Under the pieces are notes generated by a model. It saw only the letters and a list, made by a program, of their open reading frames with translations. It was not told the origin of the DNA and made no database searches. A program made the translations under genes and the position numbers. From NCBI GenBank assembly GCA_964477805.1, contig CAYZEK010000002.1, positions 1-57,115 of the forward strand: 57,115 bases of DNA. Reading direction: 5' to 3'. Below, one piece after another: positions 26,753 to 43,347 of this stretch; positions within the stretch are counted from its first letter, which is position 1, and every line of letters begins with the position of its first letter. Origin of the DNA: an uncultured Candidatus Saccharibacteria bacterium (lineage in GTDB: Bacteria; Patescibacteriota; Doudnabacteria; UBA920).

Positions 26753-28360
26753 CTATTCAACAAGTTCTCCACCGAATACCTTTAAGGCATCATTTATTGA
26801 GTCAACGGTTTGAGCAATACTAGACACTTTTATATCAGTTCTAATTACTGATCTTAGAACCAGATTCTTTCCACTTACAGCGGATATAGTTTCGGTAATT
26901 AACGCATTGTGTTTCTTATTGTCTAAATGCTCTTTGTGGAAGAGATATTTCACTGCTACTGTAATTCTACCATTTAAAACTTCAGTCACTGGGGAATTCT
27001 TCAACAATGTCGCAATTGGGCTATTTTTAGCCCTAATTCGATTAATAACGTCTGGCCACCATAATTTAATTTCCTCAATAGTAACATCAATATTTCCACT
27101 ATTAGTCTGCTTATCTACAATAGCGCTAGAAGCCATAACAGTATCTGAGTCTTTAGTAGCATCTGAGTCTTTAGTGGCATCAGAGCTAGTTGTATGACCA
27201 AGATCCGACTCAGCTGACAATGGTTCAGCTGACAATGGTTCAGCTGACAATGGCTGTATGTGTTGCGATTGCTGGTGATGAGTGGTTTTTGGTTCAACGT
27301 CATGCAACGCCGCTTCTACCGAAGCCAAAAGTAAGGGTAGATCCGGAGAAGGCGCTTCTGATAATTCTTTGTACGACCGTAAAAATAACCGAACTACAAA
27401 TAGTAATTTCTGGACTGATAGCGACTGAACATGCGTGTTAAATACAGCATCATCCTTGTGACTATTCATCTGCCCAGTTAGTTTTGCATTCAAAATTTCT
27501 CTCAAGTATTCTAAAATACTACGATTTAACACTGCCACATCTACGCCACTAGCTACCATTGATTCAAAAAAATCTGGCAAACCAGTTGCTTCATTAGTCG
27601 TAATTTTCGTAATCAAAGTTTGGACAATCTCAACCGGAGCGACACCTAACAACTGCTGAGCATCCTCTAAAGTGATTTTTTCGCCCAAAGAAATAACCAT
27701 ATTTAACCGCGACAATGCGTCGCGCATACTCCCATCAGACTGGGCGATAACTGCTTCAATCACTCCATCAGAAAGCTTTAATTTTTGATCTTTTGCGATC
27801 AACTCTAAAGCTTTAGTCATATCTACTGAATTGATTCGCTTAAAATCATACCGCTGAGTACGAGATATAATTGTTTCTGGAACTTTATCAATATCTGTTG
27901 TAGCCAAAATAAACATCACATGTTCAGGTGGTTCTTCTAGAGTTTTAAGCAGTGCATTAAAAGCCGCTTTGGAAAGCATGTGAATTTCATCTATTATGAA
28001 CACTTTTGTCTTCATAACTGTTGGGCGAAATTGCGCATGCTCGATGAGCTCACGGACATTATCTACCCCCGTATGCGATGCGGCATCTATTTCTATAATG
28101 TCCAGCGAACTTCCATTGGCAATAGCGGTGCAAACCTCACACTTACCACACGGATCGCCATTATTAAGATTCTGACAGTTTACTGCCTTTGCTAGTACGC
28201 GAGCAATTGTAGTCTTACCGACCCCACGACTACCAGTAAATAAATACGCATGGGCTAATTCCCTATTTTTAGAAGCATTCAATAAAGTCCTGGTTATTGA
28301 GCCTTGCCCTACTACCTCAGCAAATGTTCGTGGTCGATATTTTTGATATAGCACTGCCAT
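26753..28360 (-). CDS. dnaX: DNA polymerase III subunit gamma/tau
   Basis: YRPRTFAEVVGQ, GSRGVGKTT, zinc module CGKCEVC, IIDEIHML, SRTQRY. ATG 28360 is preferred because the track ATG at 28405 lies in the loop of the upstream terminator hairpin. Confidence 0.9.
   Translation of the reverse strand: MAVLYQKYRPRTFAEVVGQGSITRTLLNASKNRELAHAYLFTGSRGVGKTTIARVLAKAVNCQNLNNGDPCGKCEVCTAIANGSSLDIIEIDAASHTGVDNVRELIEHAQFRPTVMKTKVFIIDEIHMLSKAAFNALLKTLEEPPEHVMFILATTDIDKVPETIISRTQRYDFKRINSVDMTKALELIAKDQKLKLSDGVIEAVIAQSDGSMRDALSRLNMVISLGEKITLEDAQQLLGVAPVEIVQTLITKITTNEATGLPDFFESMVASGVDVAVLNRSILEYLREILNAKLTGQMNSHKDDAVFNTHVQSLSVQKLLFVVRLFLRSYKELSEAPSPDLPLLLASVEAALHDVEPKTTHHQQSQHIQPLSAEPLSAEPLSAESDLGHTTSSDATKDSDATKDSDTVMASSAIVDKQTNSGNIDVTIEEIKLWWPDVINRIRAKNSPIATLLKNSPVTEVLNGRITVAVKYLFHKEHLDNKKHNALITETISAVSGKNLVLRSVIRTDIKVSSIAQTVDSINDALKVFGGELVE
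27143..27178 (-). repeat. In-frame 18-nt tandem repeat x2 inside dnaX (DATKDS x2)
   Basis: atctgagtctttagtagc / atctgagtctttagtggc. Confidence 0.9.
27210..27254 (-). repeat. In-frame 15-nt tandem repeat x3 inside dnaX (PLSAE x3)
   Basis: tcagctgacaatggt x2, then tcagctgacaatggc. Confidence 0.9.
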
Positions 28361-28369
28361 AATATAGTC

Positions 28370-28378
28370 ATTATACCA
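28370..28378 (-). promoter_or_regulatory. TGGTATAAT with the -10 hexamer 9 nt upstream of the dnaX ATG (possible leaderless start)
   Basis: Minus strand reads ctatggTATAATgactatattATG. Confidence 0.5.
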
Positions 28379-28391
28379 TAGCGATTCAACT

Positions 28392-28419
28392 AAAAAACCG
28401 CTCATGATTGAGCGGTTTT
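28392..28419 (-). terminator. Rho-independent terminator after the GtrA-like gene
   Basis: Minus strand: aaaaccgctc-aatcat-gagcggtttt followed by tt. Confidence 0.75.
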
Positions 28420-29117: not shown

Positions 29118-29771
29118 TTAAAATTCTTCTTGAGGTTCTTCTACAGTAGATGAAAACACGCTCGGAGCTTCTACATCTTGATGCATATCACTGCTCAAAT
29201 CATCGCTGGCTTCTGTGTCTGCATGCCCAGCGCCACGCTTAATAACATGTTCAACCGCGGCCCAATCAGAATCAGTCTCCTGTGGAAGTACAATCGTAAC
29301 TTCATCTCCAGCTTCTGCTTTAAAATAAGTTAATGATGCTAATAAAACTTTGTAAGCTTTCCCATCTGCCAAAACTTTATAATCACCTTTTTCATCCTGC
29401 ATCAAAAGACCCATCACTTTGCGACGCTCCACAGGACTAATTTGCTTATATATAAATGAGCCATCTTCAGCAATGGTTAGTTTTAGCATATCGCCTTCCA
29501 CTAGCTTACTTTTTGAAGCATAATTTGCTGGTACTGGATACTGCTTCCCTTCTGGCCCGATCATGTTCTGTCCATCAAAAACACCTTCAATCACCTTATC
29601 ACCGTACGAAGAAGCCATAGTGCTAGCTTTTTCAAATACTGCACTTGAGCCATTAGAGCGAGGCGCAACCATCGCCCCACCTTCTCTAAGTAATTGCTTG
29701 GCCGATTGAATATTTTTTTCTGCCGCATCAATCATTTGCATAACTAATGCTAAATTAGCTGATTTGTCCAT
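29118..29771 (-). CDS. Hypothetical soluble 217-aa protein with acidic C-terminus
   Basis: ORF with a TGGTATAAT element upstream; no motif recognised. Confidence 0.55.
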   Translation of the reverse strand: MDKSANLALVMQMIDAAEKNIQSAKQLLREGGAMVAPRSNGSSAVFEKASTMASSYGDKVIEGVFDGQNMIGPEGKQYPVPANYASKSKLVEGDMLKLTIAEDGSFIYKQISPVERRKVMGLLMQDEKGDYKVLADGKAYKVLLASLTYFKAEAGDEVTIVLPQETDSDWAAVEHVIKRGAGHADTEASDDLSSDMHQDVEAPSVFSSTVEEPQEEF

Positions 29772-29950: not shown

Positions 29951-30622
29951 ATGAACGAAGCACATTCCCAGCAAATTCTACTGGCTGGCGAAAAAGAGCA
30001 ATTACGCTTGATTGCTCGTAGACAACTCAGCAAGATCTACTCCGGACTCGCGGGATCAAAGATGGTCCCTAGCGAATATCTAGCGATGACGCTGGAAGTC
30101 CTGTCAACCCCTGGAAAAAACATCTATGAGGAAATCCTCAGAGAGAGGATAAAGAAAGCGTATCCAAAATACGCCCAATCTTCCGGCCTCATCTCTGACC
30201 CGACGTCCAAAGAGATGAAAGATAAACTCTTCCTTCCTGAAGAGCAAAAATTGCTGGGGGCGTACATTGATCGCGACAGGTCCAGGTTTGCATCGCAGTT
30301 TGAAGGGGTCGAGGAAGACCAACCCATCGATAGCGAATTTTTGCAAAAATGGGTGGAGCATCGAGCTGAGGTGTTCCGGCGTCAACATTTGAGAGTGCTC
30401 GGTGAAGAAGCCGATTCAATCTTTCTCGAGGATCGCGACGATCCCAAGATCACCTTGTTCAAGCACAAACCGACTTGGCTGAGGAACATTCAGGAAGCCG
30501 AGAAAACGGGTAAGGCCGATCATCGCGTTGTCGAAACGCAGAAGAATCGGATCGCCGAACAAGAATCGGCAAAAGCGATGCCAGAGGAACCAAAGGTAGC
30601 CACAGCAACCCCACAAGCGTAG
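29951..30622 (+). CDS. Hypothetical soluble 223-aa protein
   Basis: Strong Shine-Dalgarno, own promoter and terminator; charged and helical; no motif recognised. Confidence 0.55.
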   Translation: MNEAHSQQILLAGEKEQLRLIARRQLSKIYSGLAGSKMVPSEYLAMTLEVLSTPGKNIYEEILRERIKKAYPKYAQSSGLISDPTSKEMKDKLFLPEEQKLLGAYIDRDRSRFASQFEGVEEDQPIDSEFLQKWVEHRAEVFRRQHLRVLGEEADSIFLEDRDDPKITLFKHKPTWLRNIQEAEKTGKADHRVVETQKNRIAEQESAKAMPEEPKVATATPQA

Positions 30623-30685: not shown

Positions 30686-30717
30686 AAAAAAATCGCCCAG
30701 CAGTTGAATGCTGGGCG
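30686..30717 (-). terminator. Rho-independent terminator of the 642-aa gene
   Basis: Stem cgcccagca/tgctgggcg; the minus strand is followed by a T-run. Confidence 0.8.
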
Positions 30718-30753
30718 AAAATATGAAGAATGAAGAATCTGGTTCACGAGGCT

Positions 30754-32682
30754 TCACGGCACAGGGTCTGTGACTACTGGCGAAGTTCCTGACATCGCCC
30801 GGTCATAAACACCTTCAAGCTCCTGCTGGAACTTTGGGTTGTAAACAAAATGGTCAGCAGTGCCTTCTTTAATGCGGTCCATAACCCCATCGGCACGCAA
30901 ATCCATAATTACAAACTCCAAAGCATCACGGGTTTTTTCCGACATCGGTTCGCCATTAATGCGCGCGCCAATATCAAATGCCACTCCGATCACGTGGGTA
31001 CGAGGTTGTGTCTGAGGGAGACAACCTTGCCCATTTACCCTTACAGGCTTGTCGTACATTTCGTTCGTACGGACTAAGCCTGTAATCTCCAGCGTATTGC
31101 CACCCAATTCTTTAACTCTTGAAGCAAGCAAGTAAATCAATCCTGCTGTCGCTTTCCGAGTAAAATAATAGGAAGCTTCGTTTCCAGAATCACATTCTCC
31201 GATTCGATCTGGACCTTTCGTACGCAGAACAAATCCAGATTTAGAACTGCTTTTAAGTGCGACCAACTCTCCCTGCTTAAACGCATGTTCTACATCTGTG
31301 CGAGTTTGATATTTCGCATCAGAATTAGACCACCACGCGCGCATTGGGCGATTAGCCAAGCCACCATCAGGATCTTGCTGATCCTTGATCATAGCAAGAA
31401 AACCCTTTCGATCAGTTCTCATTAAAGCAAAACCTTCAATAGCTGCCAACCCTGTGTAAACATAGGTAGCAGAACTGTCAGCTAAGCTAAATAGCAATTC
31501 ATAAGTTTTAGGGGTGCGGTTTGGAGTGCTACGAAAGAAGATATCGTCGTAGCTAATACCTGCTTCTCTGACTGCCTTAGCGATAGATCCATTCGGGTCT
31601 CTCGTTTGGCTAAAGTTAGCAGGATATTTTTTTCTCCAACCAGGGGTTGTTTCATCTAGATAATACATAACCAATTTTTTTAGGTTACCCATACCCATAT
31701 GAAACTCTACAAAGCCCCAATTCTCATCACCCCAGTACCTGGCGCTATCGCCAATGATATCGGCGGCAACAGGTATGGCGTAACTTGGATCAAGCCTGCG
31801 ATCCACTATTTTACTACCTTTCGGTATGAACTTAATTTGGTTTTTTGTCCCTGCCCGCTGAAGTACTTCTTTACAGAAACCAGCGTCCATAACCAAATCG
31901 CGCTCACATCCGACTGACAGCAAAAGCTGGGCAAACCCGGCGGCACCAGACTTGGCGTTAACCAAGTCTGTGTTGCAAAATCCTTCCACAAACAGCTGGC
32001 CCTCAAAACGTTCAGGAGTAATGCCTTGTTTTTTTGCTTCTGCATAGATGAGTGGTTGATACTTCTCCATGCATAAAGCACTTTTCTCGGCATTACCTTT
32101 CCCCCAAACAGCAAACTTAGCTTGTTCAACTCTGTTTGCTTTCCTAGTAGCCAACTCTTCAGATGTCATACTGAAGCGTTCTCTACCATAAGGAAGTTTT
32201 GCTCGGACTACCTTGACGGTATTCCAAGTCATAATCCCAGAGACGCCCACAAAAATTACTAGGGCACCCAATGAAATTAATAACTTAGTCTTCCATGGCA
32301 TGGCAATAAATTGCTTGCCAACAACCCTAACAGCTCTGGCATGAATACCATGCAAAGCACCCAGGTACCGATGAAACCAACCCAAAAATTTATTTACTCC
32401 TTGTAAGGACTTCAAAACTTTAGGGTATTCGTTGAACCAGCTCGGGTGGTCAACCAAACGAGCAACGCACCAGCGTGATAACACCAGGGATGCAAAGACT
32501 ATCACTAGTCCCAGCAAACCTGTGCGCCACCACAGGTAAAAATATAGCAGTGCCAAAATGACAGCACTACCGAACGTGAAAGCGAGAAAAATGTAATAAC
32601 TAAGCTTCGTTAAAAGCCAGCTGTAATCTTTCCCAGCCTCTCCTGATTGCCTTTTGGCAATCAAACTTTCTTCATTCTTCAT
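30754..32682 (-). CDS. Membrane-anchored putative cell-wall hydrolase: SLT-like lytic transglycosylase plus M15/LAS-like peptidase
   Basis: About 4 N-terminal TMs. SLT-like motifs FVEG..N....SGAAGFAQLL and FHMGMGN (residues about 205-335). C-terminal THVIGVAFD (HxxGxAxD) and ADHFVY (residues about 505-615). Confidence 0.62.
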   Translation of the reverse strand: MKNEESLIAKRQSGEAGKDYSWLLTKLSYYIFLAFTFGSAVILALLYFYLWWRTGLLGLVIVFASLVLSRWCVARLVDHPSWFNEYPKVLKSLQGVNKFLGWFHRYLGALHGIHARAVRVVGKQFIAMPWKTKLLISLGALVIFVGVSGIMTWNTVKVVRAKLPYGRERFSMTSEELATRKANRVEQAKFAVWGKGNAEKSALCMEKYQPLIYAEAKKQGITPERFEGQLFVEGFCNTDLVNAKSGAAGFAQLLLSVGCERDLVMDAGFCKEVLQRAGTKNQIKFIPKGSKIVDRRLDPSYAIPVAADIIGDSARYWGDENWGFVEFHMGMGNLKKLVMYYLDETTPGWRKKYPANFSQTRDPNGSIAKAVREAGISYDDIFFRSTPNRTPKTYELLFSLADSSATYVYTGLAAIEGFALMRTDRKGFLAMIKDQQDPDGGLANRPMRAWWSNSDAKYQTRTDVEHAFKQGELVALKSSSKSGFVLRTKGPDRIGECDSGNEASYYFTRKATAGLIYLLASRVKELGGNTLEITGLVRTNEMYDKPVRVNGQGCLPQTQPRTHVIGVAFDIGARINGEPMSEKTRDALEFVIMDLRADGVMDRIKEGTADHFVYNPKFQQELEGVYDRAMSGTSPVVTDPVP

Positions 32683-32720
32683 AATACTTCCCCCTTTTTT
32701 TATGTCAAAAAACTAACGAG

Positions 32721-32749
32721 ATAATACCATATTTTGCTGATTTTGTCAA
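32721..32749 (-). promoter_or_regulatory. Promoter of the hydrolase gene: TTGACAAAATC class, 17-nt spacer, TGg-TATTAT
   Basis: Minus strand reads ttgacaaaatcagcaaaatatggtattat; AAGGGGGA Shine-Dalgarno before ATG 32682. Confidence 0.6.
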
Positions 32750-32833: not shown

Positions 32834-32862
32834 TTGACAAAATCTTATAAATTTTGTATAAT
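32834..32862 (+). promoter_or_regulatory. Consensus sigma-70-type promoter TTGACA-17-TATAAT (TTGACAAAATC class)
   Basis: ttgacaaaatcttataaattttgtataat; about 137-nt leader to ATG 33006. Confidence 0.7.
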
Positions 32863-33005: not shown

Positions 33006-33953
33006 ATGCGTTTACTGAAAATTTCAGGATATGTGTTTGTGCTCTTCATCTTTTTGATGATGAGCATGATCACTAGCTTTGGGCAAGAAACAACCAAAGC
33101 TACAACCGCAACCACGGCCGCCTGCGCCAAAACCGAGTTGCCCACAAGGCAACTACGAACATCCAAGATCGCTAAAGCAAAGCGCGTTAGGCATAAACGC
33201 CCACGCCGTCAAAAAGCAACAGCACAGACGACTCGGGTGATTTATCTGCCCGCACCGACGCCAAAACCGCCAGTTTTAGCAACCAACGCTGATTACAGCG
33301 ACATGGTTGTCAACGCTGGGAACGAAGGAAAACAAACTGGCAAAATCAAACTTGCGAGCGGTAACGATGCAGAAGATGCGGGAACGTATCTGAACGCATT
33401 GGCTAGCCCGAATTTGCAAGCGTGGTTCGCTGGTATGGAATTGCACGTTTTTTCACCCAACGGCGGTGACGGCCGAGTAATCATTTCCGACAAAAACGGC
33501 AAGGTTCTAGATGTCGTTAATGTCTCTGGCGAAAGGCTGGCAACTGTCATAGCGATGGAAAACAACATCGCTGACAACGCCAAATCCAGCGCCGCGACGC
33601 GAGACATGATCTCATCACTTTGGTGGATCGTGCTAGTCGGATTAGCGCTGATCGTGACTTTGTTGATCCTGAGTTACATTAGGCTAAACATCCTCAAAAT
33701 GATCGAGGCTGCAACCTACCAAATTGGAAGCAGGTTAAGTCGGACCAATGAAATGCTGAAGGATCTTCATTCTGAGACGAACAAAATTCGTTATAAGACT
33801 GATGATCTTGCCAGCGACGTTGAGAAGATCATGGCGCACTACGGTATTCATCGTAAGGATCCCAGCCCCATCCAAGCACCAATCGAGACACCCATCATTG
33901 ACGCCGAAGTGGTGGACGACGATGACCCGGACCACCCGGTGGTTGCGGGATAA
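33006..33953 (+). CDS. Hypothetical exported bitopic protein (signal peptide, basic stretch, ectodomain, TM, coiled-coil tail)
   Basis: AGGAGG Shine-Dalgarno 7 nt upstream; signal-like N-terminus; KAKRVRHKRPRRQK stretch; TM WWIVLVGLALIVTLLILSYI; acidic C-terminus. Confidence 0.55.
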   Translation: MRLLKISGYVFVLFIFLMMSMITSFGQETTKATTATTAACAKTELPTRQLRTSKIAKAKRVRHKRPRRQKATAQTTRVIYLPAPTPKPPVLATNADYSDMVVNAGNEGKQTGKIKLASGNDAEDAGTYLNALASPNLQAWFAGMELHVFSPNGGDGRVIISDKNGKVLDVVNVSGERLATVIAMENNIADNAKSSAATRDMISSLWWIVLVGLALIVTLLILSYIRLNILKMIEAATYQIGSRLSRTNEMLKDLHSETNKIRYKTDDLASDVEKIMAHYGIHRKDPSPIQAPIETPIIDAEVVDDDDPDHPVVAG

Positions 33954-34144: not shown

Positions 34145-34477
34145 TTATTTCTTTATTTGTTCAAATCCTGTTTTTAACACCTCCAACTCGCGGGCAATTG
34201 TGATTTGGATTTTAGCGTTTAAACCAGGTATATGAGAGGATAGCTCTTGAACTTTCTGCGACAAAGACACCGGGTCCATTTGCAATGCGTTTTCTAAATC
34301 TCTGGCTTGCTGTTCTGAAATACTATCTAAGAGAGTGTCAATGATTAAATCAGAAAAGTGTTCTGTCATTCCTTGCAACACTTCATGCTTTTGTTCATCG
34401 GAAAGATGCGCCAAGTTAAAATAACTTAACAATTCATCTTGGGATGGAACTAAATCATTTTGTTTGTTTTCTACCAT
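34145..34477 (-). CDS. Hypothetical acidic 110-aa protein
   Basis: ORF 11 nt downstream of the 884-aa gene; no motif recognised. Confidence 0.45.
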   Translation of the reverse strand: MVENKQNDLVPSQDELLSYFNLAHLSDEQKHEVLQGMTEHFSDLIIDTLLDSISEQQARDLENALQMDPVSLSQKVQELSSHIPGLNAKIQITIARELEVLKTGFEQIKK

Positions 34478-34488
34478 GGATTTGGAAA

Positions 34489-37143
34489 TTATAGACCTAA
34501 TTTTTTACGAGAAGTTTTTAAATTAGACTGAGCAATTTTTTCAGCTTTTTTAAAAATATTTATATACCCTTTTGGAATATCTTTGGGTGCTAGCTTTTCT
34601 AGATGTTTAATAATTTTACTAATTCGATCATTATCTACCCCTGGACCTACCTTTTGAGACATCTTGTAAAATGTTTCGTAAATAGAAGCTAATTTTTTTA
34701 CTTCGGGATTATCTAAAGCCGCGTCTGCATCAACTGCGTATTCACTTATTGAACGCAAAGTGTCTTGTATTTTTTTTATATCTTTGGATTTAAACCCTTC
34801 TTTGCTAACTGCACTATTTAGCAAACCACCATCTTGGCGCATCAGGTCAAACCAAATCCCCCTTTGACTCTTTGCTAAGCCTTTTGCCTCCGCTTCTTGA
34901 TATATATCTTCTGGCTTTGTCACTTCTGGTGATTTTTTCTTTGCACCCTTGCGCGATGCTGCGACTGCTACCACTGCTGTATCAACTGCTACATCATTAT
35001 TAGATTCTGCGTCTTCATTTGCGGCTACATCTTCATTCACCTCTGCATCTTCATCAGTTTCTACGTTTGCTGTTGTTTCCACAAGGTCATTTTCTGTTTG
35101 TTCAAGAGATTGATTCTCCGGATCGTGCTTAGCAATTAAATCCTCAAGTTGAGCATCTGCAGTAGCGTTAATTTCACTTAAACTTTTATGTTTTAAATGT
35201 TTTTTAAGTTTATACGCTCCGTAACCTGCTCCAATGCCCAACAACACCTCCACCACATCAACCACACCTGCCCTTGCGTAAGAATCAACAGGCTTTGTAA
35301 TAGCATCGCCAGCTTTTTTTGCAGATTCATCAGCCACAGCCCGCGCAACCTCCTGCTGTGCCTCTATCGTAGCAGAGTCAACAGGTGCTACTTCCACAGG
35401 CTTGGCATGTTCTAGCAACTTTTCAAAAAAGTGATTGCTATCAGACCCAATTTTATCGTTCTTCAGCAAATCCATGCTTTGTTCTGATAACCGATGACCA
35501 GGTGAGTTTAATAATTTCGTTAAATTGGCGATTTTTTCTGGACTGAGTTGATTAGCCTTATCCCATGCGTTTTGGATTTGATCTCCAGTCAGCTCAAACT
35601 TTTGCCCTAATTCCACCACATGCCCAACACCCTTAGTTTGATCCAAAAAATGTTCTTTCATTAAAGTATCTTCAGCAAACACCAATTTAGCTAACTGCTC
35701 TGGACTAAGTTCTGTTGAAGTATCGCCACTTAAATGATTTTTATTTACTAAATAATCATGCAACAGATCTCGAGCAGCATGAGTTGCCCCCTCCCCTTTT
35801 TCTGCCACTGTGATGAATTTTTGTTGCAGTAATTCTTTTTGTAAACTTGCCAAAGATTCATGTGCGTGAGCATTAATAACTTCTTGTTGAAGTGTTCCCA
35901 TTGCGACAGTAGCTTGCTCGGCAACATTTGGGTTGACTTGTAAAATCTTCCCAGTTTTTTCAATGGCCTGTTCAGTAATTTTTTCTGAGCTTTTGTCTCC
36001 TGGCGCCCAACCAAACACTGAACGCACGGAATCGCTATCCAACAAGGCGTGCATACCGTAACCAACCCCACCACCCAATGCGCCAGAAGCAGCCCCAACA
36101 AGAATATTTTTAACTAACTTTGCCTTAAATTGAGGGTTCTTTTGTGTCTCAAACTTTACCTTTTCAGAAAAAAGACGCCCTGATACCAGATTTTTCAAAA
36201 ACTGCCCAGAAGTCTGCCGTTCATTTTTGATACCCTCTAGTTTACGCAAACTTTTACGAGAATCACGAGATTCATGCATTACCGCAAGAAACTTTTTTGC
36301 ATCTGAAAGTTTTTCCAATTTTTCTTTAGATAATTCTAGTCGAAGCAACAACTCTGCTTTTTGCAACTTCACTTTCAACATATTAACCTCTAAGGGTAAT
36401 AGTTTGTCATTCTTAAGTGCCTTGCGACCTTTATCAATTATTTCTGCAATCCTTACTTTGTCATTCCCCTTCAAAGCTTCATCTAATTGTCGCAGTACAT
36501 CATTACTGTCAACTTTTAATCTCTCTTTCCAATAAGTTTCGATAGCTGCGAAACCGCCTCCAATCAATGCGCCAAGACCAATACTCCCACCCAAGCTAGT
36601 CCAACCCAAATATGCTCTCGCAGAGGATTTTACCACACCACGAAGCCCAGCGCCTGCTAAGGCTGGCAAAGTAAATTTTGTTGCAGTGTGTTTTAGAAAA
36701 CCAGCGAGGCGATTTTTAGAAGTCTGTCCTTGCAGTTTTTCGATTAACTCAGCTTTTAGTTTTTTAACAGCTTCCTCACCTCCCTCAAACTCACCTCCCT
36801 CAAACTCTGCCCTGATCTTTTCAAATTCTTCTGCAAAATTTTCATCAATCAACACACTTAACTCATCTACGTTGTTAAGCATGGCTTCGGCAACATCTTC
36901 TGCTTGTTGCTCTACATCTTGTTCTGGTTGTTGCTCTGATTCTTGTTCTACTTCTTGCTCTGCTTGTCGTCCAATTTCTTGTTCTGCTATATCTTCTGAA
37001 TTTTCCTCAATAGCGGTGTCTTGCGTCTCTACCTCCTGAGATTGTTTTTCTTCCTCAACAGCAAATTCAGCAGGGTCCTGTTTTACATCAGTATCATCTG
37101 CCAATTTTTTTTCTTTACCAAAAAACCGTCCAATAAAACTCAT
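34489..37143 (-). CDS. Large hypothetical protein (884 aa): acidic repeat N-terminus and three Gly-rich hydrophobic segments
   Basis: EQEVEQESEQQPEQDVEQQAE and EFEGG x2 repeats; segments GWTSLGGSIGLGALIGGGFAAI, ILVGAASGALGGGVGYGM, VLLGIGAGYGAY. Confidence 0.6.
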   Translation of the reverse strand: MSFIGRFFGKEKKLADDTDVKQDPAEFAVEEEKQSQEVETQDTAIEENSEDIAEQEIGRQAEQEVEQESEQQPEQDVEQQAEDVAEAMLNNVDELSVLIDENFAEEFEKIRAEFEGGEFEGGEEAVKKLKAELIEKLQGQTSKNRLAGFLKHTATKFTLPALAGAGLRGVVKSSARAYLGWTSLGGSIGLGALIGGGFAAIETYWKERLKVDSNDVLRQLDEALKGNDKVRIAEIIDKGRKALKNDKLLPLEVNMLKVKLQKAELLLRLELSKEKLEKLSDAKKFLAVMHESRDSRKSLRKLEGIKNERQTSGQFLKNLVSGRLFSEKVKFETQKNPQFKAKLVKNILVGAASGALGGGVGYGMHALLDSDSVRSVFGWAPGDKSSEKITEQAIEKTGKILQVNPNVAEQATVAMGTLQQEVINAHAHESLASLQKELLQQKFITVAEKGEGATHAARDLLHDYLVNKNHLSGDTSTELSPEQLAKLVFAEDTLMKEHFLDQTKGVGHVVELGQKFELTGDQIQNAWDKANQLSPEKIANLTKLLNSPGHRLSEQSMDLLKNDKIGSDSNHFFEKLLEHAKPVEVAPVDSATIEAQQEVARAVADESAKKAGDAITKPVDSYARAGVVDVVEVLLGIGAGYGAYKLKKHLKHKSLSEINATADAQLEDLIAKHDPENQSLEQTENDLVETTANVETDEDAEVNEDVAANEDAESNNDVAVDTAVVAVAASRKGAKKKSPEVTKPEDIYQEAEAKGLAKSQRGIWFDLMRQDGGLLNSAVSKEGFKSKDIKKIQDTLRSISEYAVDADAALDNPEVKKLASIYETFYKMSQKVGPGVDNDRISKIIKHLEKLAPKDIPKGYINIFKKAEKIAQSNLKTSRKKLGL
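36776..36805 (-). repeat. In-frame 15-nt tandem repeat x2 (EFEGG x2)
   Basis: tcacctccctcaaac x2. Confidence 0.9.
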
Positions 37144-37211: not shown

Positions 37212-38759
37212 CTACAAAACCCGAAAAATAGCCAGTCCGCCTGCATCAAACCCTAGCTCAAAAAAATCACTATGAACATCATTGGAAAGAAAATTATAAA
37301 TATTTGGGTTTCTAGCTACGTCAACAAAGATAAACTTAGCTCTTAAATCTTGCTTTACCAATTTATGAACAGCTTCGATAGAACCCCAATTCTCAACATT
37401 ATCATCGGCTATCTTCCGCCAATCCCAATACAAATTGGGGTCATAAATGTACATGAAAGTTGGATCTAGCCCCAGCATGTAATAATTTTTGTCATTCCAA
37501 TAAAAGAGTTGCGCCGACTGATCCCATTGCGTGTTTAAAACCAAATCCTTAGGGGCACTGTTTTTTATTAACCAACTAGAGGCATTCTGGTAACGATTAT
37601 TCGCTTCGCCAGATGACAAAGATAAATACACTTTTTGGACATTATAAAAGCCAATTAAAACAACGATGACTACAATCAACATTCCTGCGACTGTAACTTG
37701 CCAAGCAGAGACCATAAGACTTTTACATTTTCCCCATGACAATTGCCGAACATACGGACTTAAAGTAATTGCTGTTGCCAGAACAGTAAACGGCGTCCAA
37801 TACTCAATAAACCGTCGATGCCACAAAGTCAGGACGAAAAAACCAATCGCAATAGTCTGCATCCAAATTGACAGCCAATTCAGTTTGCGATTGAATATTT
37901 TTTTTGCTTCTACCACCAGCGCAATTAACCAACCAGTTAAAACCAAAATATTTGATTCCAAAAACCAATCAAATCTAAACGGCAACCACTCATTGCCAGC
38001 AGGCACTACCCTGCCCGCGCCAAGCCCAGTTTGAAATATTTGATCATATAACAATACTAAAAGATTTTGACTATGTGGATGGATAAGTAACGCAACAACA
38101 ATCCCAAAAATAGAAGAAAGTAATGGCCAAATATCCACTTTCCGTTCTGAGATCATTATTGCCATTGAGTATGCGATCAAAAATAACGGCACACAAACAA
38201 AGCCACCATATGTCCAAGCAAAAATTCCAGACAGAACGCCAATTAGAGCTAATAATTTTTTGTTTTTTTGCTGATGGTATTGATAAGTAATTAAAGTTAT
38301 CAAGCATAGTAAAGCTAGCGAAATAGTGTTGGCTTTCACCACATTAATGCGAAAAATAAAATCAACCGATCCGAGCAATGTTAGCAATAGCCAAAATGGT
38401 TTACCGGGAACCTGCATTTTAGACATCAACAACCAAAAACAAACAAAAAATATTGTACTAAACAGAATGATTGATACAGGTAATAACCCAACTGTATTAA
38501 ATGGCACTAACAACCAATGATATAGATAATGTTGATCTGCGTACCCCTCGCTCCAAGTTGTATAAGCAAGCCATGGAAAAGTATCCCCCAGCCTTCCTTC
38601 TGATACAAGCTGAGAAGCTTTGGCATGATAAAACCCATCTGGATCGGAGAACTTTCCCCAAACAGAAATTTGTAATCCTGTGATTACTAATACTGCTAAT
38701 GCAAGGCTAATCCAAGTTGTTTTGGTCGACTTGATAAATTTTAACATCTGAGTTTTCAT
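37212..38759 (-). CDS. Polytopic membrane protein, GT-C-fold glycosyltransferase-like
   Basis: More than 10 predicted TMs; DPDGFYH acidic motif in the first loop resembles the DxD loop of the ArnT/PMT/STT3-type fold; assignment is weak. Confidence 0.5.
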   Translation of the reverse strand: MKTQMLKFIKSTKTTWISLALAVLVITGLQISVWGKFSDPDGFYHAKASQLVSEGRLGDTFPWLAYTTWSEGYADQHYLYHWLLVPFNTVGLLPVSIILFSTIFFVCFWLLMSKMQVPGKPFWLLLTLLGSVDFIFRINVVKANTISLALLCLITLITYQYHQQKNKKLLALIGVLSGIFAWTYGGFVCVPLFLIAYSMAIMISERKVDIWPLLSSIFGIVVALLIHPHSQNLLVLLYDQIFQTGLGAGRVVPAGNEWLPFRFDWFLESNILVLTGWLIALVVEAKKIFNRKLNWLSIWMQTIAIGFFVLTLWHRRFIEYWTPFTVLATAITLSPYVRQLSWGKCKSLMVSAWQVTVAGMLIVVIVVLIGFYNVQKVYLSLSSGEANNRYQNASSWLIKNSAPKDLVLNTQWDQSAQLFYWNDKNYYMLGLDPTFMYIYDPNLYWDWRKIADDNVENWGSIEAVHKLVKQDLRAKFIFVDVARNPNIYNFLSNDVHSDFFELGFDAGGLAIFRVL

Positions 38760-40305
38760 AAACTACTCTTAAATAATGGCGGGCTGTTGTATCTAAACCA
38801 CCCAATAAACGAACATCGGCATCTTCAAAAATGTAATCAATATCTTCCTGTCTGAGAAAAAACTTCAAAGGGTCGCTGTTATTAATCTTACTGCCAAGCA
38901 TCCCTGTTACTATCTCAGATTTAAGACCATAATCCAAAGTCTGATCACCAGTACCCACAAACACCTTCCGCCCTGCAATTCCAGGGATAATATTACTGGA
39001 AACAAGACTAGAAATCACAATACTCTTAGGCTCAGTGTTATGTTTCAACCAGATTGCTCCAGCATAAATGCCCTCGTCTAAATAAAATGGTGGTTCTCCT
39101 GCTTTAAAAAATTGCATATCCTGATAAAGACGCCACACATTAGTCAATGCGAGCAAACTAATCAAACTCAAAACGACGAAATGCTTTAGCAATTTATTTT
39201 TCAATCCTGATTCTTGCAAAAACCAAACCAATCCCATAGAGGCTAAAATCGCTATGGGAATATGCAACCCCTCACTAAACTTCCTCTGAAATCTGACAAG
39301 TAACGGGAAGTAAAGTAAAAAAGGTATTACTAATATCCAGATCAACAGGAAAAGAATTCTTTGGATATCTTTGTTTATACTCATATTGCTAATGCCGACA
39401 AAAGCAAAGACTAACAAAAACCCATAACCAGACAAAAAATAATACCATGCATACGATGGGACATTAGTTTGTATTGTAGCCCAAACCCCTAACACAGGAT
39501 TAATATTTAGGATATTCACCTGCCATAAAGCAAAAGGCAAAACTAGTATGATCAGATACAAATAATTTCTGAGCCAAAAATAATTTTTCGTCTTAAATGT
39601 TTGTACCAACACATATACGAATAATACTGATGTCACAATAGCCAAATCATATGGGTGTATGATTACCAATACCCCTAATAACAACGCAGGAAGCAAAACA
39701 ACCATCCTCCGTGAGGAGTGAAATAAATTTGTAGATATATGGAAAATTAATAAAATTAAAGTTAGCGAAATAAGATTAAGTGGCGACATATACAAACTTA
39801 AAAATGTGTTTGATTCTACCATCCACATATCAGTAGACAATGGAGACAAAAACAGACCCACTCCAGACGAAACAATTGTAATTACAAAAGTCAACTGCCT
39901 TGCGGTAACATTTTTTATAAAATCAGAGATAAACAAATACAGACTGGACAAAAAAAGCATGCCGACGAACATTTTCCCAACATGATAAATCACAATATTA
40001 GACAAAGTACTGAAATGCCCCAAAACTCCTAAAACATAAAAAAATGGATGAAAAAATAAAGCTGATTGAAGCTCAGTACTATACAGATTTACAAAGAAAA
40101 AATTTCCTTGCCTAGCTTGTTCAAACCATGCTAAGTAAGTATAAGTATCATAGTGACTAATAGTCGTCATCCCTGTAAAAAAACTTCCAGCAGGTGTGTG
40201 TAACCACCCATACAGATACGGTAGATTGATAAGACTAACAAACAAAACTGATACAACGACGACCCAGACCCATTCACTTCTACTAATTTTTTCTAGAGAA
40301 ATCAT
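38707..40305 (-). CDS. Polytopic membrane protein with C-terminal soluble domain, GT-C-like
   Basis: More than 10 predicted TMs; HYDTYTYLAWFEQ loop after TM1; about 130-aa C-terminal non-membrane domain; overlaps the next gene by 53 nt. Confidence 0.5.
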   Translation of the reverse strand: MISLEKISRSEWVWVVVVSVLFVSLINLPYLYGWLHTPAGSFFTGMTTISHYDTYTYLAWFEQARQGNFFFVNLYSTELQSALFFHPFFYVLGVLGHFSTLSNIVIYHVGKMFVGMLFLSSLYLFISDFIKNVTARQLTFVITIVSSGVGLFLSPLSTDMWMVESNTFLSLYMSPLNLISLTLILLIFHISTNLFHSSRRMVVLLPALLLGVLVIIHPYDLAIVTSVLFVYVLVQTFKTKNYFWLRNYLYLIILVLPFALWQVNILNINPVLGVWATIQTNVPSYAWYYFLSGYGFLLVFAFVGISNMSINKDIQRILFLLIWILVIPFLLYFPLLVRFQRKFSEGLHIPIAILASMGLVWFLQESGLKNKLLKHFVVLSLISLLALTNVWRLYQDMQFFKAGEPPFYLDEGIYAGAIWLKHNTEPKSIVISSLVSSNIIPGIAGRKVFVGTGDQTLDYGLKSEIVTGMLGSKINNSDPLKFFLRQEDIDYIFEDADVRLLGGLDTTARHYLRVVYENSDVKIYQVDQNNLD

Positions 40306-40379: not shown

Positions 40380-41906
40380 TCAGCTAATCCTCCTTGTTCG
40401 AACAGTAAACGCACCATCACCCTGATAACCTTTTAAGCTATCAATGGTGCGGTACGTAATCTCGCCACTTTCTGTAGCTACGATACGTTGTGGTCCGCAA
40501 ATCAAAAATCTTTTACTCGACTTTGAACCGATCCACATTTCTAACCCACCCACATTTTTAGCGAATGGACTGTCAACTGCCGTATCTGCATAACCAGTAG
40601 TTTCTCCGCATGAGCCAACAACTGGTCCATCCGACCGCGCTTGTACTGTCCCCGAAGGTTCGACTTCCACGACATCTCCTTTGTTAACACTAAAGGTCTG
40701 TACTCCTGTCGAATTCTTCTGCGGGACACGCACCACAGACTCTTTAACGGCGCTCGCCTTTATTGGCGCGGGCGCCGTCGGAACAGCTGAAGCGGTTGGC
40801 GAGTGCGAATTGCTTGGGCTAGAATTCAGACTTTGATCTGAAGCAGAAGCAAACGGATTCTTGCCATCGTTTAAGTCCTTTGAGAACTTATTGATCGCCT
40901 CGTTCTTTTGAGCGAAGTTCACAATAGGCCCTAAGGTTAACAGACCGATAAAAAGTACCGTCCCTGCAAAAGCGACAACACCCCAACGTAATTCAAAGGC
41001 GTCTTTACCGGCGTCTTCATCAGTTGCCTTACCCTTCTTCAAGGAAACACCACTAAAAGCAATAGCAGCTACCAAAATGAAGAATAAACCCCAGATCAAC
41101 AGACCGGTGTTGTCGTCCGCCCCCCAATTTACCCTTGCCAAGAGTTTATAAAACCCAAGGTGGTAAATTAAGATCGCAGCGACAAGATACATCAGAAATG
41201 TCTGGACTTTTTCCAGCCAAAATGGTGGTCGTTTCCAGCCATAGATCATGAAGAATAGCCCAGCGATGCAGAGCAAAGCAATGATTAAACTCCCCAGATC
41301 ATGGCTCAGCCACTTCATGGTTAGCAATATAACATTGATCACCATGACATAAGCAAGAAACGCCATAATCCCAAACAGCAATTCTTTCGCCTTTGCCTCA
41401 AAAGCTTTTTCTTCTCGTGCTTCTTTCAAATCACTCAAGAATTTTTCTTCCTTATCAAAAGCCTCTCCGACTAAGTCTGGAATTGCCACCGCTGCAAGAT
41501 GAGCCACAACATTTATTGCGCTCAACACAACCCTTTCAATGCCTGCAACGACACCAGTGACAACCCCAACCTTCGTCGTTACGAGGAGGTAGTACGCCAC
41601 TGATACCAACATCAGAACCAACGGCACCAGGCGGAAGCCATAGTACCCTTCGGTGCAAACGCCGGTATTTGCGTCGCAAAAAGTCCGCGTTGTAACGACT
41701 AACGCTACCAACGCAATCAAATTAACTACCAGCGCAAAGCGCAGTAGTGTCCAGGTTTCAAGAAAATGCTTCGCCCCTTTAGACCAAGTCCAAATGGCAG
41801 CATTCTCAACCTCCAACACTCCCCACTTTATGATGGTTTCCACATGGTCCATAGCATCTGTACCAGAACCCTTCGACGACACCTTACCCTTACCCTTACT
41901 TGCCAT
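40380..41906 (-). CDS. 8-TM membrane protein with a C-terminal beta domain resembling PA-IL/LecA-type lectins
   Basis: GAGGAG Shine-Dalgarno. The last 118 aa (40383-40736) show the pattern GDVVEV..G......GP..G....GGLEMWIG....G.ITY.....GY.GDGAF.V, comparable by eye to LecA. Confidence 0.55.
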   Translation of the reverse strand: MASKGKGKVSSKGSGTDAMDHVETIIKWGVLEVENAAIWTWSKGAKHFLETWTLLRFALVVNLIALVALVVTTRTFCDANTGVCTEGYYGFRLVPLVLMLVSVAYYLLVTTKVGVVTGVVAGIERVVLSAINVVAHLAAVAIPDLVGEAFDKEEKFLSDLKEAREEKAFEAKAKELLFGIMAFLAYVMVINVILLTMKWLSHDLGSLIIALLCIAGLFFMIYGWKRPPFWLEKVQTFLMYLVAAILIYHLGFYKLLARVNWGADDNTGLLIWGLFFILVAAIAFSGVSLKKGKATDEDAGKDAFELRWGVVAFAGTVLFIGLLTLGPIVNFAQKNEAINKFSKDLNDGKNPFASASDQSLNSSPSNSHSPTASAVPTAPAPIKASAVKESVVRVPQKNSTGVQTFSVNKGDVVEVEPSGTVQARSDGPVVGSCGETTGYADTAVDSPFAKNVGGLEMWIGSKSSKRFLICGPQRIVATESGEITYRTIDSLKGYQGDGAFTVRTRRIS

Positions 41907-41917
41907 TTTTTTCTCCT

Positions 41918-42604
41918 CTAGAATATCCTAAACCCTAAAATCAGGGCTATGGTTGGGTGACGATCACGCCAAGTTGCTGGTGCAACTGACTGAACCGATT
42001 GAGCTTGTTGAAGCTTCTTGACCCGTAAACGAGCCCTACGCTCTTTCTGCAATACGCGATCACGCAGCTCCGCGTACTTCGCCATAATCTCCAAAGGTGT
42101 TATTAACCCTTGAATAGCCATTTCCAGCTGAGACGGATCAAATATGCCCATCCCATCAAGCGAGTCCATTACTTCCTTCTGCGTGCGCAAGTTGGCCAAA
42201 AAAGCCAACAGCATCAAACGATGCTTGCGATCACGCTCCGAGACATAGGCTTGCCGGAACTTCGCCTTATGCTTAGGCGAAAGTTGCTTGAAAACATTGA
42301 GCAACCAAAAACCTTTACGATCTTCAATTATCTCACTGTCCACGAGGCTTGCGATGTCGCAACCAAGCCTCATCTCATCCTTCATTCCAAAGGATGTTTC
42401 CCACGCCCCAAGGGCTTCATCCAAGGCCTCAGTCTGTTTGCCCTCTCGCATCAATGTTTCAATGCGATCAGCAGTCTTTCGCTCTTCCGGAGAAGAGCCT
42501 TTGCCCTTGAAAAATTTGGTTACATACCCCAAAACCTGCGAAGCGTCCAAAGCGACGTCCGCGATTTCGAACAGGTCCCTTAATCCTACAAAGCCTACTG
42601 CCAT
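41918..42604 (-). CDS. Hypothetical helical 228-aa protein
   Basis: GAGGTG Shine-Dalgarno; Arg/Lys-rich coiled segment near the C-terminus; no motif recognised. Confidence 0.5.
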   Translation of the reverse strand: MAVGFVGLRDLFEIADVALDASQVLGYVTKFFKGKGSSPEERKTADRIETLMREGKQTEALDEALGAWETSFGMKDEMRLGCDIASLVDSEIIEDRKGFWLLNVFKQLSPKHKAKFRQAYVSERDRKHRLMLLAFLANLRTQKEVMDSLDGMGIFDPSQLEMAIQGLITPLEIMAKYAELRDRVLQKERRARLRVKKLQQAQSVQSVAPATWRDRHPTIALILGFRIF

Positions 42605-42612
42605 AATTCACC

Positions 42613-43347
42613 TCAAAATTCCTTCCGCAATCTTTTGATTACGGGTTTGTTAGCTAAGTACAAAAAAGAAATTTGTACATCGCTAATTGCCTTTGACCTA
42701 ACAAGCAGGAGCAAACCTTTAACAGGAATGACAAGCTTGTGCTTCTTTACCGCTCTAGCAATTTCTGCATCACTTTCATAATCAGACAGTGATACATTCT
42801 TGTTGGCGGTGAAAAAAACTTCCCCAGCAACAGAATTACCTTTTTTGTCCAAACACTGAACTCGGAAAGGATAGTCAATACCGCGAGCGGTAATAACTCG
42901 ATCCTCTTCTCCGAGCAATGTCTCGACGACCAAAGGGTCTTTCTTGGCAGAAGACCCAACTTTACCAGCCCCGCCAATACCATGAACTTCTTGCAAAGCT
43001 TTTAGCTCTGCTTTGTTAAAGTCCTTTTTGACCCTGGCGCCATGTGGAGCCACTACACTAATTGTGGTGCAGTTCGCTGGTAAGCTTTCGATCAAAACTT
43101 CAGATGTGGCCATACCGTTGCTTTGCGTAAACAAATCAAAGGCGAGTCCATCTTTGTCTAACAATCCCTCGAGCGGAAGCTCAGCCGGATTGCGCTTATT
43201 CCCAGCAAACGCAAATAACTTAGCATCGTTCGTAGCAATATTATTCTCATAATAATGCGCAGTGACGTGCAAAGATTTGTTGTCTGCTCCAAACGAAATA
43301 AACAAGTCAATCTTCTCGGAAACACGACTCGTTTTTGCTATGCTCAT
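42613..43347 (-). CDS. Hypothetical beta-rich 244-aa protein, first gene of the operon
   Basis: AGGAGGG Shine-Dalgarno 8 nt upstream of the ATG; no TM; no motif recognised. Confidence 0.55.
   Translation of the reverse strand: MSIAKTSRVSEKIDLFISFGADNKSLHVTAHYYENNIATNDAKLFAFAGNKRNPAELPLEGLLDKDGLAFDLFTQSNGMATSEVLIESLPANCTTISVVAPHGARVKKDFNKAELKALQEVHGIGGAGKVGSSAKKDPLVVETLLGEEDRVITARGIDYPFRVQCLDKKGNSVAGEVFFTANKNVSLSDYESDAEIARAVKKHKLVIPVKGLLLLVRSKAISDVQISFLYLANKPVIKRLRKEF

Follow-up and report, generated by a model that had tools for sequence, protein, structure and literature searches.

Enzymes that join a glycan-cutting to a peptide-cutting activity against peptidoglycan have been described in several settings. 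In conjugation systems of monoderm bacteria, membrane-associated VirB1-like hydrolases carry both kinds of domain and open the wall of the producing cell; pIP501 TraG and pCF10 PrgK are examples of the type in which SLT is combined with CHAP. The type VI secretion effectors Tse4 and Tae17 of Acinetobacter likewise contain a lytic transglycosylase and a hydrolase of peptide or amide bonds in one polypeptide. A third combination, SLT together with the Pfam family DUF5715, occurs in Patescibacteria, and no mention of DUF5715 was found in the literature searched. Here we describe a gene encoding this domain set in a stretch of 57,115 nucleotides from an uncultured Candidatus Saccharibacteria bacterium (contig CAYZEK010000002.1; the whole stretch is referred to as the window). 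With a probability of about 0.75, its product is a membrane-anchored, extracytoplasmic, bifunctional peptidoglycan hydrolase of Saccharibacteria-type Patescibacteria, likely acting on the cell's own wall. The design is uncommon, yet it has precedents in the well known glycan and peptide hydrolase fusions of monoderm VirB1 proteins, Tse4 and Tae17.

Domains of the 642-residue protein

The gene is a complete open reading frame (ORF), and the following parts of it are referred to below.

30754 to 32682, minus strand: hydrolase ORF, 642 amino acids (aa), with a three-helix membrane anchor, an SLT lytic transglycosylase and a DUF5715 (LAS/M15-like) domain
32215 to 32604, minus strand: N-terminal anchor, residues 27-156, three hydrophobic segments and a basic amphipathic loop (79-131) predicted to be cytoplasmic; poorly conserved
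31648 to 32094, minus strand: core of the SLT (family-1 lytic transglycosylase) domain, residues about 197-345, with about 30 residues inserted after the GxxQ helix and before the DxRxDP motif
31984 to 31986, minus strand: codon of E233, the predicted catalytic glutamate; invariant, opposite ES of T7 gp16 in the alignment, with Gly in this protein where Ser usually follows
31363 to 31647, minus strand: helical extension, residues 346-440, conserved (including an invariant YVYTGLAA) and modelled as helices after the transglycosylase core
30781 to 31320, minus strand: DUF5715-family domain, LAS/M15-like according to family profiles, residues 455-634
30994 to 30996, minus strand: codon of H563, first predicted zinc ligand, present in 98/98 relatives
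30973 to 30975, minus strand: codon of D570, second predicted zinc ligand, 98/98, with the H-x6-D spacing in 95/98
30850 to 30852, minus strand: codon of H611, third predicted zinc ligand, 93/98, opposite Ply500 H133 in hhalign

The motifs from which an earlier note had proposed the two activities are all present in this frame, at residues 231-234 (FVEG, 31981-31992), 245-254 (SGAAGFAQLL), 327-333 (FHMGMGN), 562-570 (THVIGVAFD, 30973-30999) and 609-614 (ADHFVY, 30841-30858). A search of 5.8 billion proteins returned only 15 full-length relatives of 630-664 aa with identities of 50-100%. Related genes are found in assemblies of Candidatus Saccharibacteria, in one that carries the label Doudnabacteria and in an unclassified genome of 943 kb. 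The alignment of the 15 proteins is weakly conserved over the N-terminal 160 or so residues and highly conserved over the remainder. E233, G249, Q252, H328, G330, H563, D570 and H611 are invariant in all 15, as are S245-G246-A247, the H328-M-G triplet and the four cysteines C259, C270, C497 and C554. An explanation of the motifs by chance was ruled out by the family-level statistics.

Searches with the single protein against Pfam, NCBIfam and the sequences of the PDB gave one sub-threshold match, to DUF5715 (PF18979), with 17.5 bits for the whole protein and 20.1 bits for the domain by itself against a curated cut-off of 26.8. Since the window protein by itself misses the Pfam thresholds, the domain calls rest on profiles of its family. 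With a hidden Markov model (HMM) built from distant relatives only, residues 203-343 scored 69 bits and residues 455-634 scored 132 bits.

For the first of these regions the evidence is consistent across methods. Pfam SLT (PF01464, GH23) matched 13 of the 15 homologues at E values of up to 1, and four homologues with 50-52% identity exceeded the curated cut-off (23-30 bits versus 21.3). A profile made from residues 195-345 and 19 relatives (A6) found T7 gp16 (1.4e-16), MltE (7.5e-12) and Slt70 (6.6e-10), and in addition MltC and MltF. In these alignments the ES, GxxQ, DxRxDP and YHxGxG blocks line up with the known motifs, and H328-M-G-x-G is placed against YNQGEG of T7 gp16. The AlphaFold model of the full-length protein has a mean predicted local distance difference test score (pLDDT) of 75, rising to about 90 over residues 200-400, which include the SLT region. 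Foldseek matched this model to MltE (2y8p) with a probability of 0.99 and a template modelling score (target) of 0.57, and also to phage LT_GEWL proteins with a probability of 0.99; against viral structures, transglycosylases alone were returned. Thus, the assignment of residues from about 200 to 345 to the family-1 SLT-type lytic transglycosylases is strongly supported, as the earlier note had proposed, by the Pfam matches of the homologues, the fold match to MltE and the profile match to T7 gp16. MltE and Slt70 of E. coli and T7 gp16 share the fold and the motifs (an ES-type glutamate, GxxQ, DxRxDP and (Y/H)xxGxG) with the window protein, which differs from them in the insert, the conserved helical extension of about 95 residues, EG instead of ES and the fusion to a putative peptidase. 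A further difference is its three-helix anchor in an envelope of the monoderm type; the window protein is neither a lipoprotein nor an internal phage protein.

The second region was approached through its own relatives. An HMM of the domain, run exhaustively against 1.84 billion cluster representatives, found 134 relatives, and 98 were scanned against Pfam: 81 passed or approached the DUF5715 model (best 3.4e-14), 38 also contained SLT (best 1.5e-21) and four matched Peptidase_M15_3 (8.6e-5). In a PHROGs scan of the relatives, the SLT part alone was reported. Two groups can be distinguished, proteins of about 250-330 aa with DUF5715 only, about half of which have a single N-terminal hydrophobic segment, and proteins of about 500-640 aa with SLT and DUF5715. 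Judged by this transitive homology, the C-terminal domain of the window protein is a divergent DUF5715 member. From the relatives it is set apart by its score below the cut-off, by a Tyr and a Gly at positions where the family has Gln and Ser, and by its three-helix anchor, most relatives having a single N-terminal hydrophobic segment.

Chromosomal position points to the same family. The order hydrolase, protein of about 210 aa, GtrA, DnaX, protein of about 550 aa, (HtrA) and RuvX is kept in the related loci L002, L003, L005 and L087. In L087, which belongs to a more distant genome, the hydrolase slot is occupied by P0021, a protein of 577 aa for which Pfam matches to both SLT and DUF5715 are already precomputed; the order there is giant protein, protein of about 100 aa, hydrolase, protein of about 210 aa, GtrA, DnaX, HtrA, RuvX. 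The presence of an SLT+DUF5715 protein in this slot is a good reason to regard the window gene as its divergent positional orthologue.

Probable relation of the C-terminal domain to M15 peptidases

The consensus of the domain, (L/I)EVTS(L/V)VRxxxYQxxL...PTHxxGxAFDI...E...HVV, parallels the pattern QGYRSTAEQNALY...SNHNYGVAVDL...DYPHFE of the Listeria phage endolysin Ply500. In alignments of 98 to 132 relatives H563 and D570 show no exception, and R538 (96/98), E606 (92/98), H611 (93/98) and G514 are nearly invariant. Aspartate at position 610, beside H611, was seen in two of the 98 scanned sequences, yet it is almost invariant in the close family of 15. When the alignment of 132 domain sequences was compared locally with a Ply500/VanY-type M15 alignment in hhalign, a score of 30.3 (P 3.5e-4) was obtained; shuffling the columns 60 times yielded scores of 12.1 ± 2.5, none of them above 22.4, and reversal yielded 14.9. 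The pairing is R-R, Q-Q, H-H, D-D and H-H, with H563, D570 and H611 opposite H80, D87 and H133 of Ply500, which we take to be the zinc binders in its crystal structure. A search of a panel of 132 M15 sequences with the domain HMM found a phage M15 sequence at an E value of 7.5e-6, and the reverse search from M15 to the domain gave a P value of 1.6e-6. The M15 profile is shallow, since searches for more diverse M15 sequences yielded relatives at 50% identity or more and no others. R-x4-Q, H-x6-D and the final His are collinear with those of the M15 (LAS) enzymes Ply500, VanY and LdcB, and the profile similarity is significant. In contrast to these enzymes, the acidic residue of DUF5715 is found five to eight residues before the last His and not in a DxxH or ExxH arrangement, and the similarity is too low for the Pfam M15 models in 94 of the 98 relatives.

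Several observations weigh against the assignment of two active hydrolase domains. The window protein alone is below the Pfam thresholds for both of them, with no SLT match and 17.5-20 bits instead of 26.8 for DUF5715. Gly234 replaces the usual Ser after the catalytic glutamate, a position at which the close homologues have Ser, Ala or Gly. In the C-terminal domain, the near-invariant Gln of the family (93/98) is Tyr543 in the subfamily of the window protein and the Ser of TS(L/V)VR is Gly535, so that either active site may be altered. E606 precedes the last His by five to eight residues, unlike the DxxH of Ply500; in VanY-type enzymes the motif is ExxH. With unrefined alignments the hhalign P value was 0.027, the residue pairing being unchanged. 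Profile searches of PDB sequences returned no M15 match. In Foldseek, neither the full-length model nor an AlphaFold model of the C-terminal domain alone, the latter of low confidence (pLDDT 56.6), was matched to an M15 or LAS structure, although the predicted order of strands and helices is compatible with a LAS fold. The structures that Foldseek did match to this domain-only model, winged-helix regulators and ribosomal proteins, were dismissed as meaningless at such a pLDDT.

These points can also be read in another way, namely that the transglycosylase alone is catalytic and that the DUF5715 domain, as a LAS fold in degenerate form, binds stem peptides or has a regulatory role. The loss of the family Gln and Ser in this subfamily, the low AlphaFold confidence and the missing M15 or LAS match in Foldseek would all fit. 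Against this, the window protein retains the three predicted ligands as well as R538 and E606, all of which are also present in 92-98 of the 98 relatives, a pattern typical of active enzymes. Moreover, there are proteins of about 250-330 aa in which DUF5715 is the only domain and follows a signal-like segment, as expected for a stand-alone enzyme. We therefore consider a degenerate domain improbable. Identification of the C-terminal domain as a LAS/M15-like metallopeptidase is probable and moderately supported by the sequence comparisons: of what the earlier note had put forward, the three ligand positions are conserved and aligned with those of Ply500 and the profile similarity is present, but a structural match to LAS enzymes was not obtained.

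Membrane anchor and proposed substrate

Kyte-Doolittle hydropathy revealed three hydrophobic segments, at residues of about 27-52, 54-78 and 132-156, and the same pattern is present in 12 of 14 close homologues. The four transmembrane segments suggested earlier are thus reduced to three; the stretch 87-127, in the basic loop 79-131, is an amphipathic and strongly basic helix that does not span the membrane. Hydropathy and charge counts, the only basis for the topology, place the N-terminus and the loop 79-131 inside and would place the catalytic part outside. Two further observations were counted in favour of an extracytoplasmic location: the relatives have one N-terminal hydrophobic segment or two to three transmembrane segments, and the four cysteines are invariant in the close family. 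A similarity of the N-terminus to Bestrophin was not significant (profile match with an E value of 0.3).

According to the proposed mechanism, the three N-terminal helices would tether the hydrolase to the membrane of the producing cell. The SLT module (goose-lysozyme-like), located directly past the third helix, would cleave the bond between N-acetylmuramic acid and N-acetylglucosamine, with E233 as the single catalytic acid. The DUF5715 domain would act as a LAS-type zinc metallopeptidase with H563, D570 and H611 as predicted ligands and R538 and E606 as candidates for substrate binding and catalysis, and would cut the stem peptide or the cross-link. In this way the sacculus of the producer could be opened locally, for growth, for separation of daughter cells or for the insertion of envelope-spanning structures. 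Because both modules would stay within reach of the producer's membrane, its own sacculus is the most likely substrate, although the present data do not distinguish between the producer's own wall and that of a host.

The relatives come from assemblies of Saccharibacteria or Patescibacteria, a group whose cultivated members are obligate epibionts. It might therefore be possible that the enzyme attacks the wall of a host bacterium at the site of contact, making a portal for feeding or attachment. Pairs of glycan- and peptide-cutting activities do serve as antibacterial weapons, as in Tse4 and Tae17; however, those two are exported as cargo, carry delivery domains and have immunity partners, whereas the window protein is predicted to be membrane-anchored and has no conserved partner gene. 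Its catalytic part begins right after the third helix, and the protein shows neither a long linker nor a secretion signal or a module that would span the cell wall. In addition, the gene appears to be monocistronic and lies among housekeeping genes, the ORFs that flank it in the window are strain-specific and no conserved immunity-like partner adjoins it. The annotation tables of S. epibionticum, an epibiont that has been studied genetically, list no protein with Pfam SLT (PF01464) or DUF5715 (PF18979). With the three-helix tether making an action at such a distance less likely, we regard an attack on the host wall as unlikely and opening of the producer's own wall as the better explanation.

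Gene environment and the question of a secretion machine

The gene is accompanied by its own putative expression signals:

32721 to 32749, minus strand: promoter-like site TTGACA-17-TATTAT, 11 of 12 consensus positions, with TG preceding the -10 element, 39 nucleotides 5' of the ATG; a consensus match only
32687 to 32694, minus strand: Shine-Dalgarno-like sequence GGGGGAAG, four nucleotides 5' of the ATG at 32682; read directly from the sequence
30693 to 30718, minus strand: terminator-like hairpin with 10 pairs, seven of them G-C, and a tail of seven T, 36 nucleotides past the stop codon; a consensus match only

With a promoter-like site, a Shine-Dalgarno-like sequence and a terminator-like hairpin of its own, the gene looks like an independent, monocistronic transcription unit in the source genome.

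The ORFs scanned with Pfam cover about 44 of the 57 kb of the window. Outside the region from 33 to 43 kb, housekeeping genes were found, encoding a histidine kinase, DinB, MreB, RecJ, a glycolysis block, TIM and GalT as well as HtrA, DnaX, GtrA, SecY and a ribosomal protein; RuvX was located through comparison with the related loci. Upstream of the hydrolase gene follow a strain-specific ORF, a protein of about 110 aa, a protein of 884 aa, three proteins with 8-9 transmembrane segments and no family match, two small proteins and then an ATPase of 848 aa that resembles VirD4/TraD coupling proteins. This ATPase (43568-46114, minus strand) has an N-terminal transmembrane segment and lies 11 kb from the hydrolase. 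It matches Pfam TrwB_AAD_bind, DUF87 and T4SS-DNA_transf, the NCBIfam TraD matches being far under their cut-offs; it is 73-84% identical in the related loci and thus far more conserved than the hydrolase, and no VirB4 is encoded nearby.

The layout of two hydrolase domains on one anchor had been taken in the earlier note as that of a VirB1-like protein. The gene product might then act as the hole puncher for a machine of the type IV secretion kind or one resembling a conjugation system, in which a channel around the VirD4/TraD-like ATPase would export the neighbouring giant protein or DNA. Such a machine would be in line with the VirB1 proteins of monoderm systems, which are two-domain enzymes with SLT and a peptidase, and with the related loci, where the genes for ATPase and hydrolase are 0-8 kb apart in four cases, directly adjacent in L001, and a giant protein together with a protein of about 100 aa (DUF5663-like) is usually encoded between them. 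Including the window, the distance ranges from 0 to 11 kb and the intervening genes vary. However, neither Pfam nor NCBIfam identified genes for VirB4, VirB6, PrgI, a pilin or a relaxase in the scanned ORFs, the ATPase, 11 kb away, being all that was found, so that the type IV secretion layout is not borne out. The synteny block also includes dnaX, GtrA, HtrA, RuvX and SecY, and proximity may simply reflect the gene order of the whole genome; other SLT+DUF5715 genes adjoin groEL/groES or rpsL/rpsG/fusA.

Comparison with characterised systems leads in the same direction. The type IV secretion systems of Patescibacteria are similar to those used for conjugation by monoderms, and virB4 rarely has a VirB1 homologue near it. 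In S. epibionticum, the type IV secretion cluster (SEML1_0006-0019) is separate and carries different hydrolases, and the coupling-protein homologue is encoded elsewhere and is non-essential. The window gene is located outside such a cluster, and its peptidase is predicted to be a metalloenzyme (LAS), whereas VirB1-like hydrolases have cysteine peptidases of the CHAP or NlpC/P60 type. No match was obtained with tblastn for an SLT+DUF5715 relative in plasmids or for the C-terminal domain in phages. Taken together, a VirB1-like role is rather unlikely, and a membrane-anchored hydrolase working on the producer's wall remains our preferred reading. A more specific variant, in which the hydrolase, the highly conserved ATPase and the variable giant protein with its companion of about 100 aa form a minimal, hitherto undescribed export device across the envelope of Saccharibacteria, separate from the VirB4-type systems, is very doubtful; if it were true, the SLT+DUF5715 enzyme would open the wall for the giant protein to be moved onto the cell surface or into a host cell. 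A prophage endolysin was rejected as well, since the gene keeps its place in the chromosome, its product has a membrane anchor and no phage genes were seen among the scanned ORFs of the window.

The giant protein of the window is acidic and has 884 aa (1130-1756 aa elsewhere). It is encoded at 34489-37143, with the protein of about 110 aa at 34145-34477 (both on the minus strand). The pair recurs between ATPase and hydrolase in L001, L002 and L087, the small protein being DUF5663 in L002, and diverges fast, with identities of 23-25%. Next to it are genes for three consecutive polytopic proteins of 508-532 aa with 8-9 hydrophobic segments (37212-38759, 38707-40305 and 40380-41906, all on the minus strand), the first two of which overlap by 53 nucleotides. 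They have no Pfam or NCBIfam match and no mutual BLAST similarity; given the nearby GtrA, they may be GT-C-type glycosyltransferases.

The hydrolase gene is flanked by ORFs on the opposite strand, 29951-30622 and 33006-33953 (both plus), with a G+C content at third codon positions (GC3) of 0.55 compared to a window mean of 0.35 (standard deviation 0.07). Neither of them has a tblastn match in five related loci or a Pfam match, and 33006-33953 has no NCBIfam match; they have the appearance of insertions that are specific to the strain and possibly acquired. The latter ORF encodes a signal peptide and one transmembrane segment and is preceded by a promoter-like site with 12 of 12 consensus positions at 32834-32862. 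A second patch of raised GC3 (0.42-0.53) extends from 40380 to 43347 and contains three ORFs with at most one weak match in the related loci. On the other side, 29118-29771 (minus strand) encodes a soluble protein of 217 aa without family match, which is located directly downstream of the hydrolase in most related loci and, with identities of 67-78%, is better conserved than the hydrolase. In the linker of DnaX (gamma/tau; 26753-28405, minus strand), tandem peptide repeats were seen, PLSAE three times and DATKDS twice.

The gain from these data is incremental, since the general design that combines glycan and peptide cutting is already familiar. In Patescibacteria, the cell-wall hydrolases that can be recognised are very few, and wall remodelling by these tiny epibionts is poorly known. 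The analysis has picked out a divergent, conserved chromosomal family member, left as hypothetical by standard Pfam annotation, and it provides DUF5715 with a testable function as a LAS/M15-type peptidoglycan peptidase that is often fused to a lytic transglycosylase. If the enzyme is active, it would be a compact lysin with two activities and a candidate for opening the wall in growth, division or machine insertion in Saccharibacteria.

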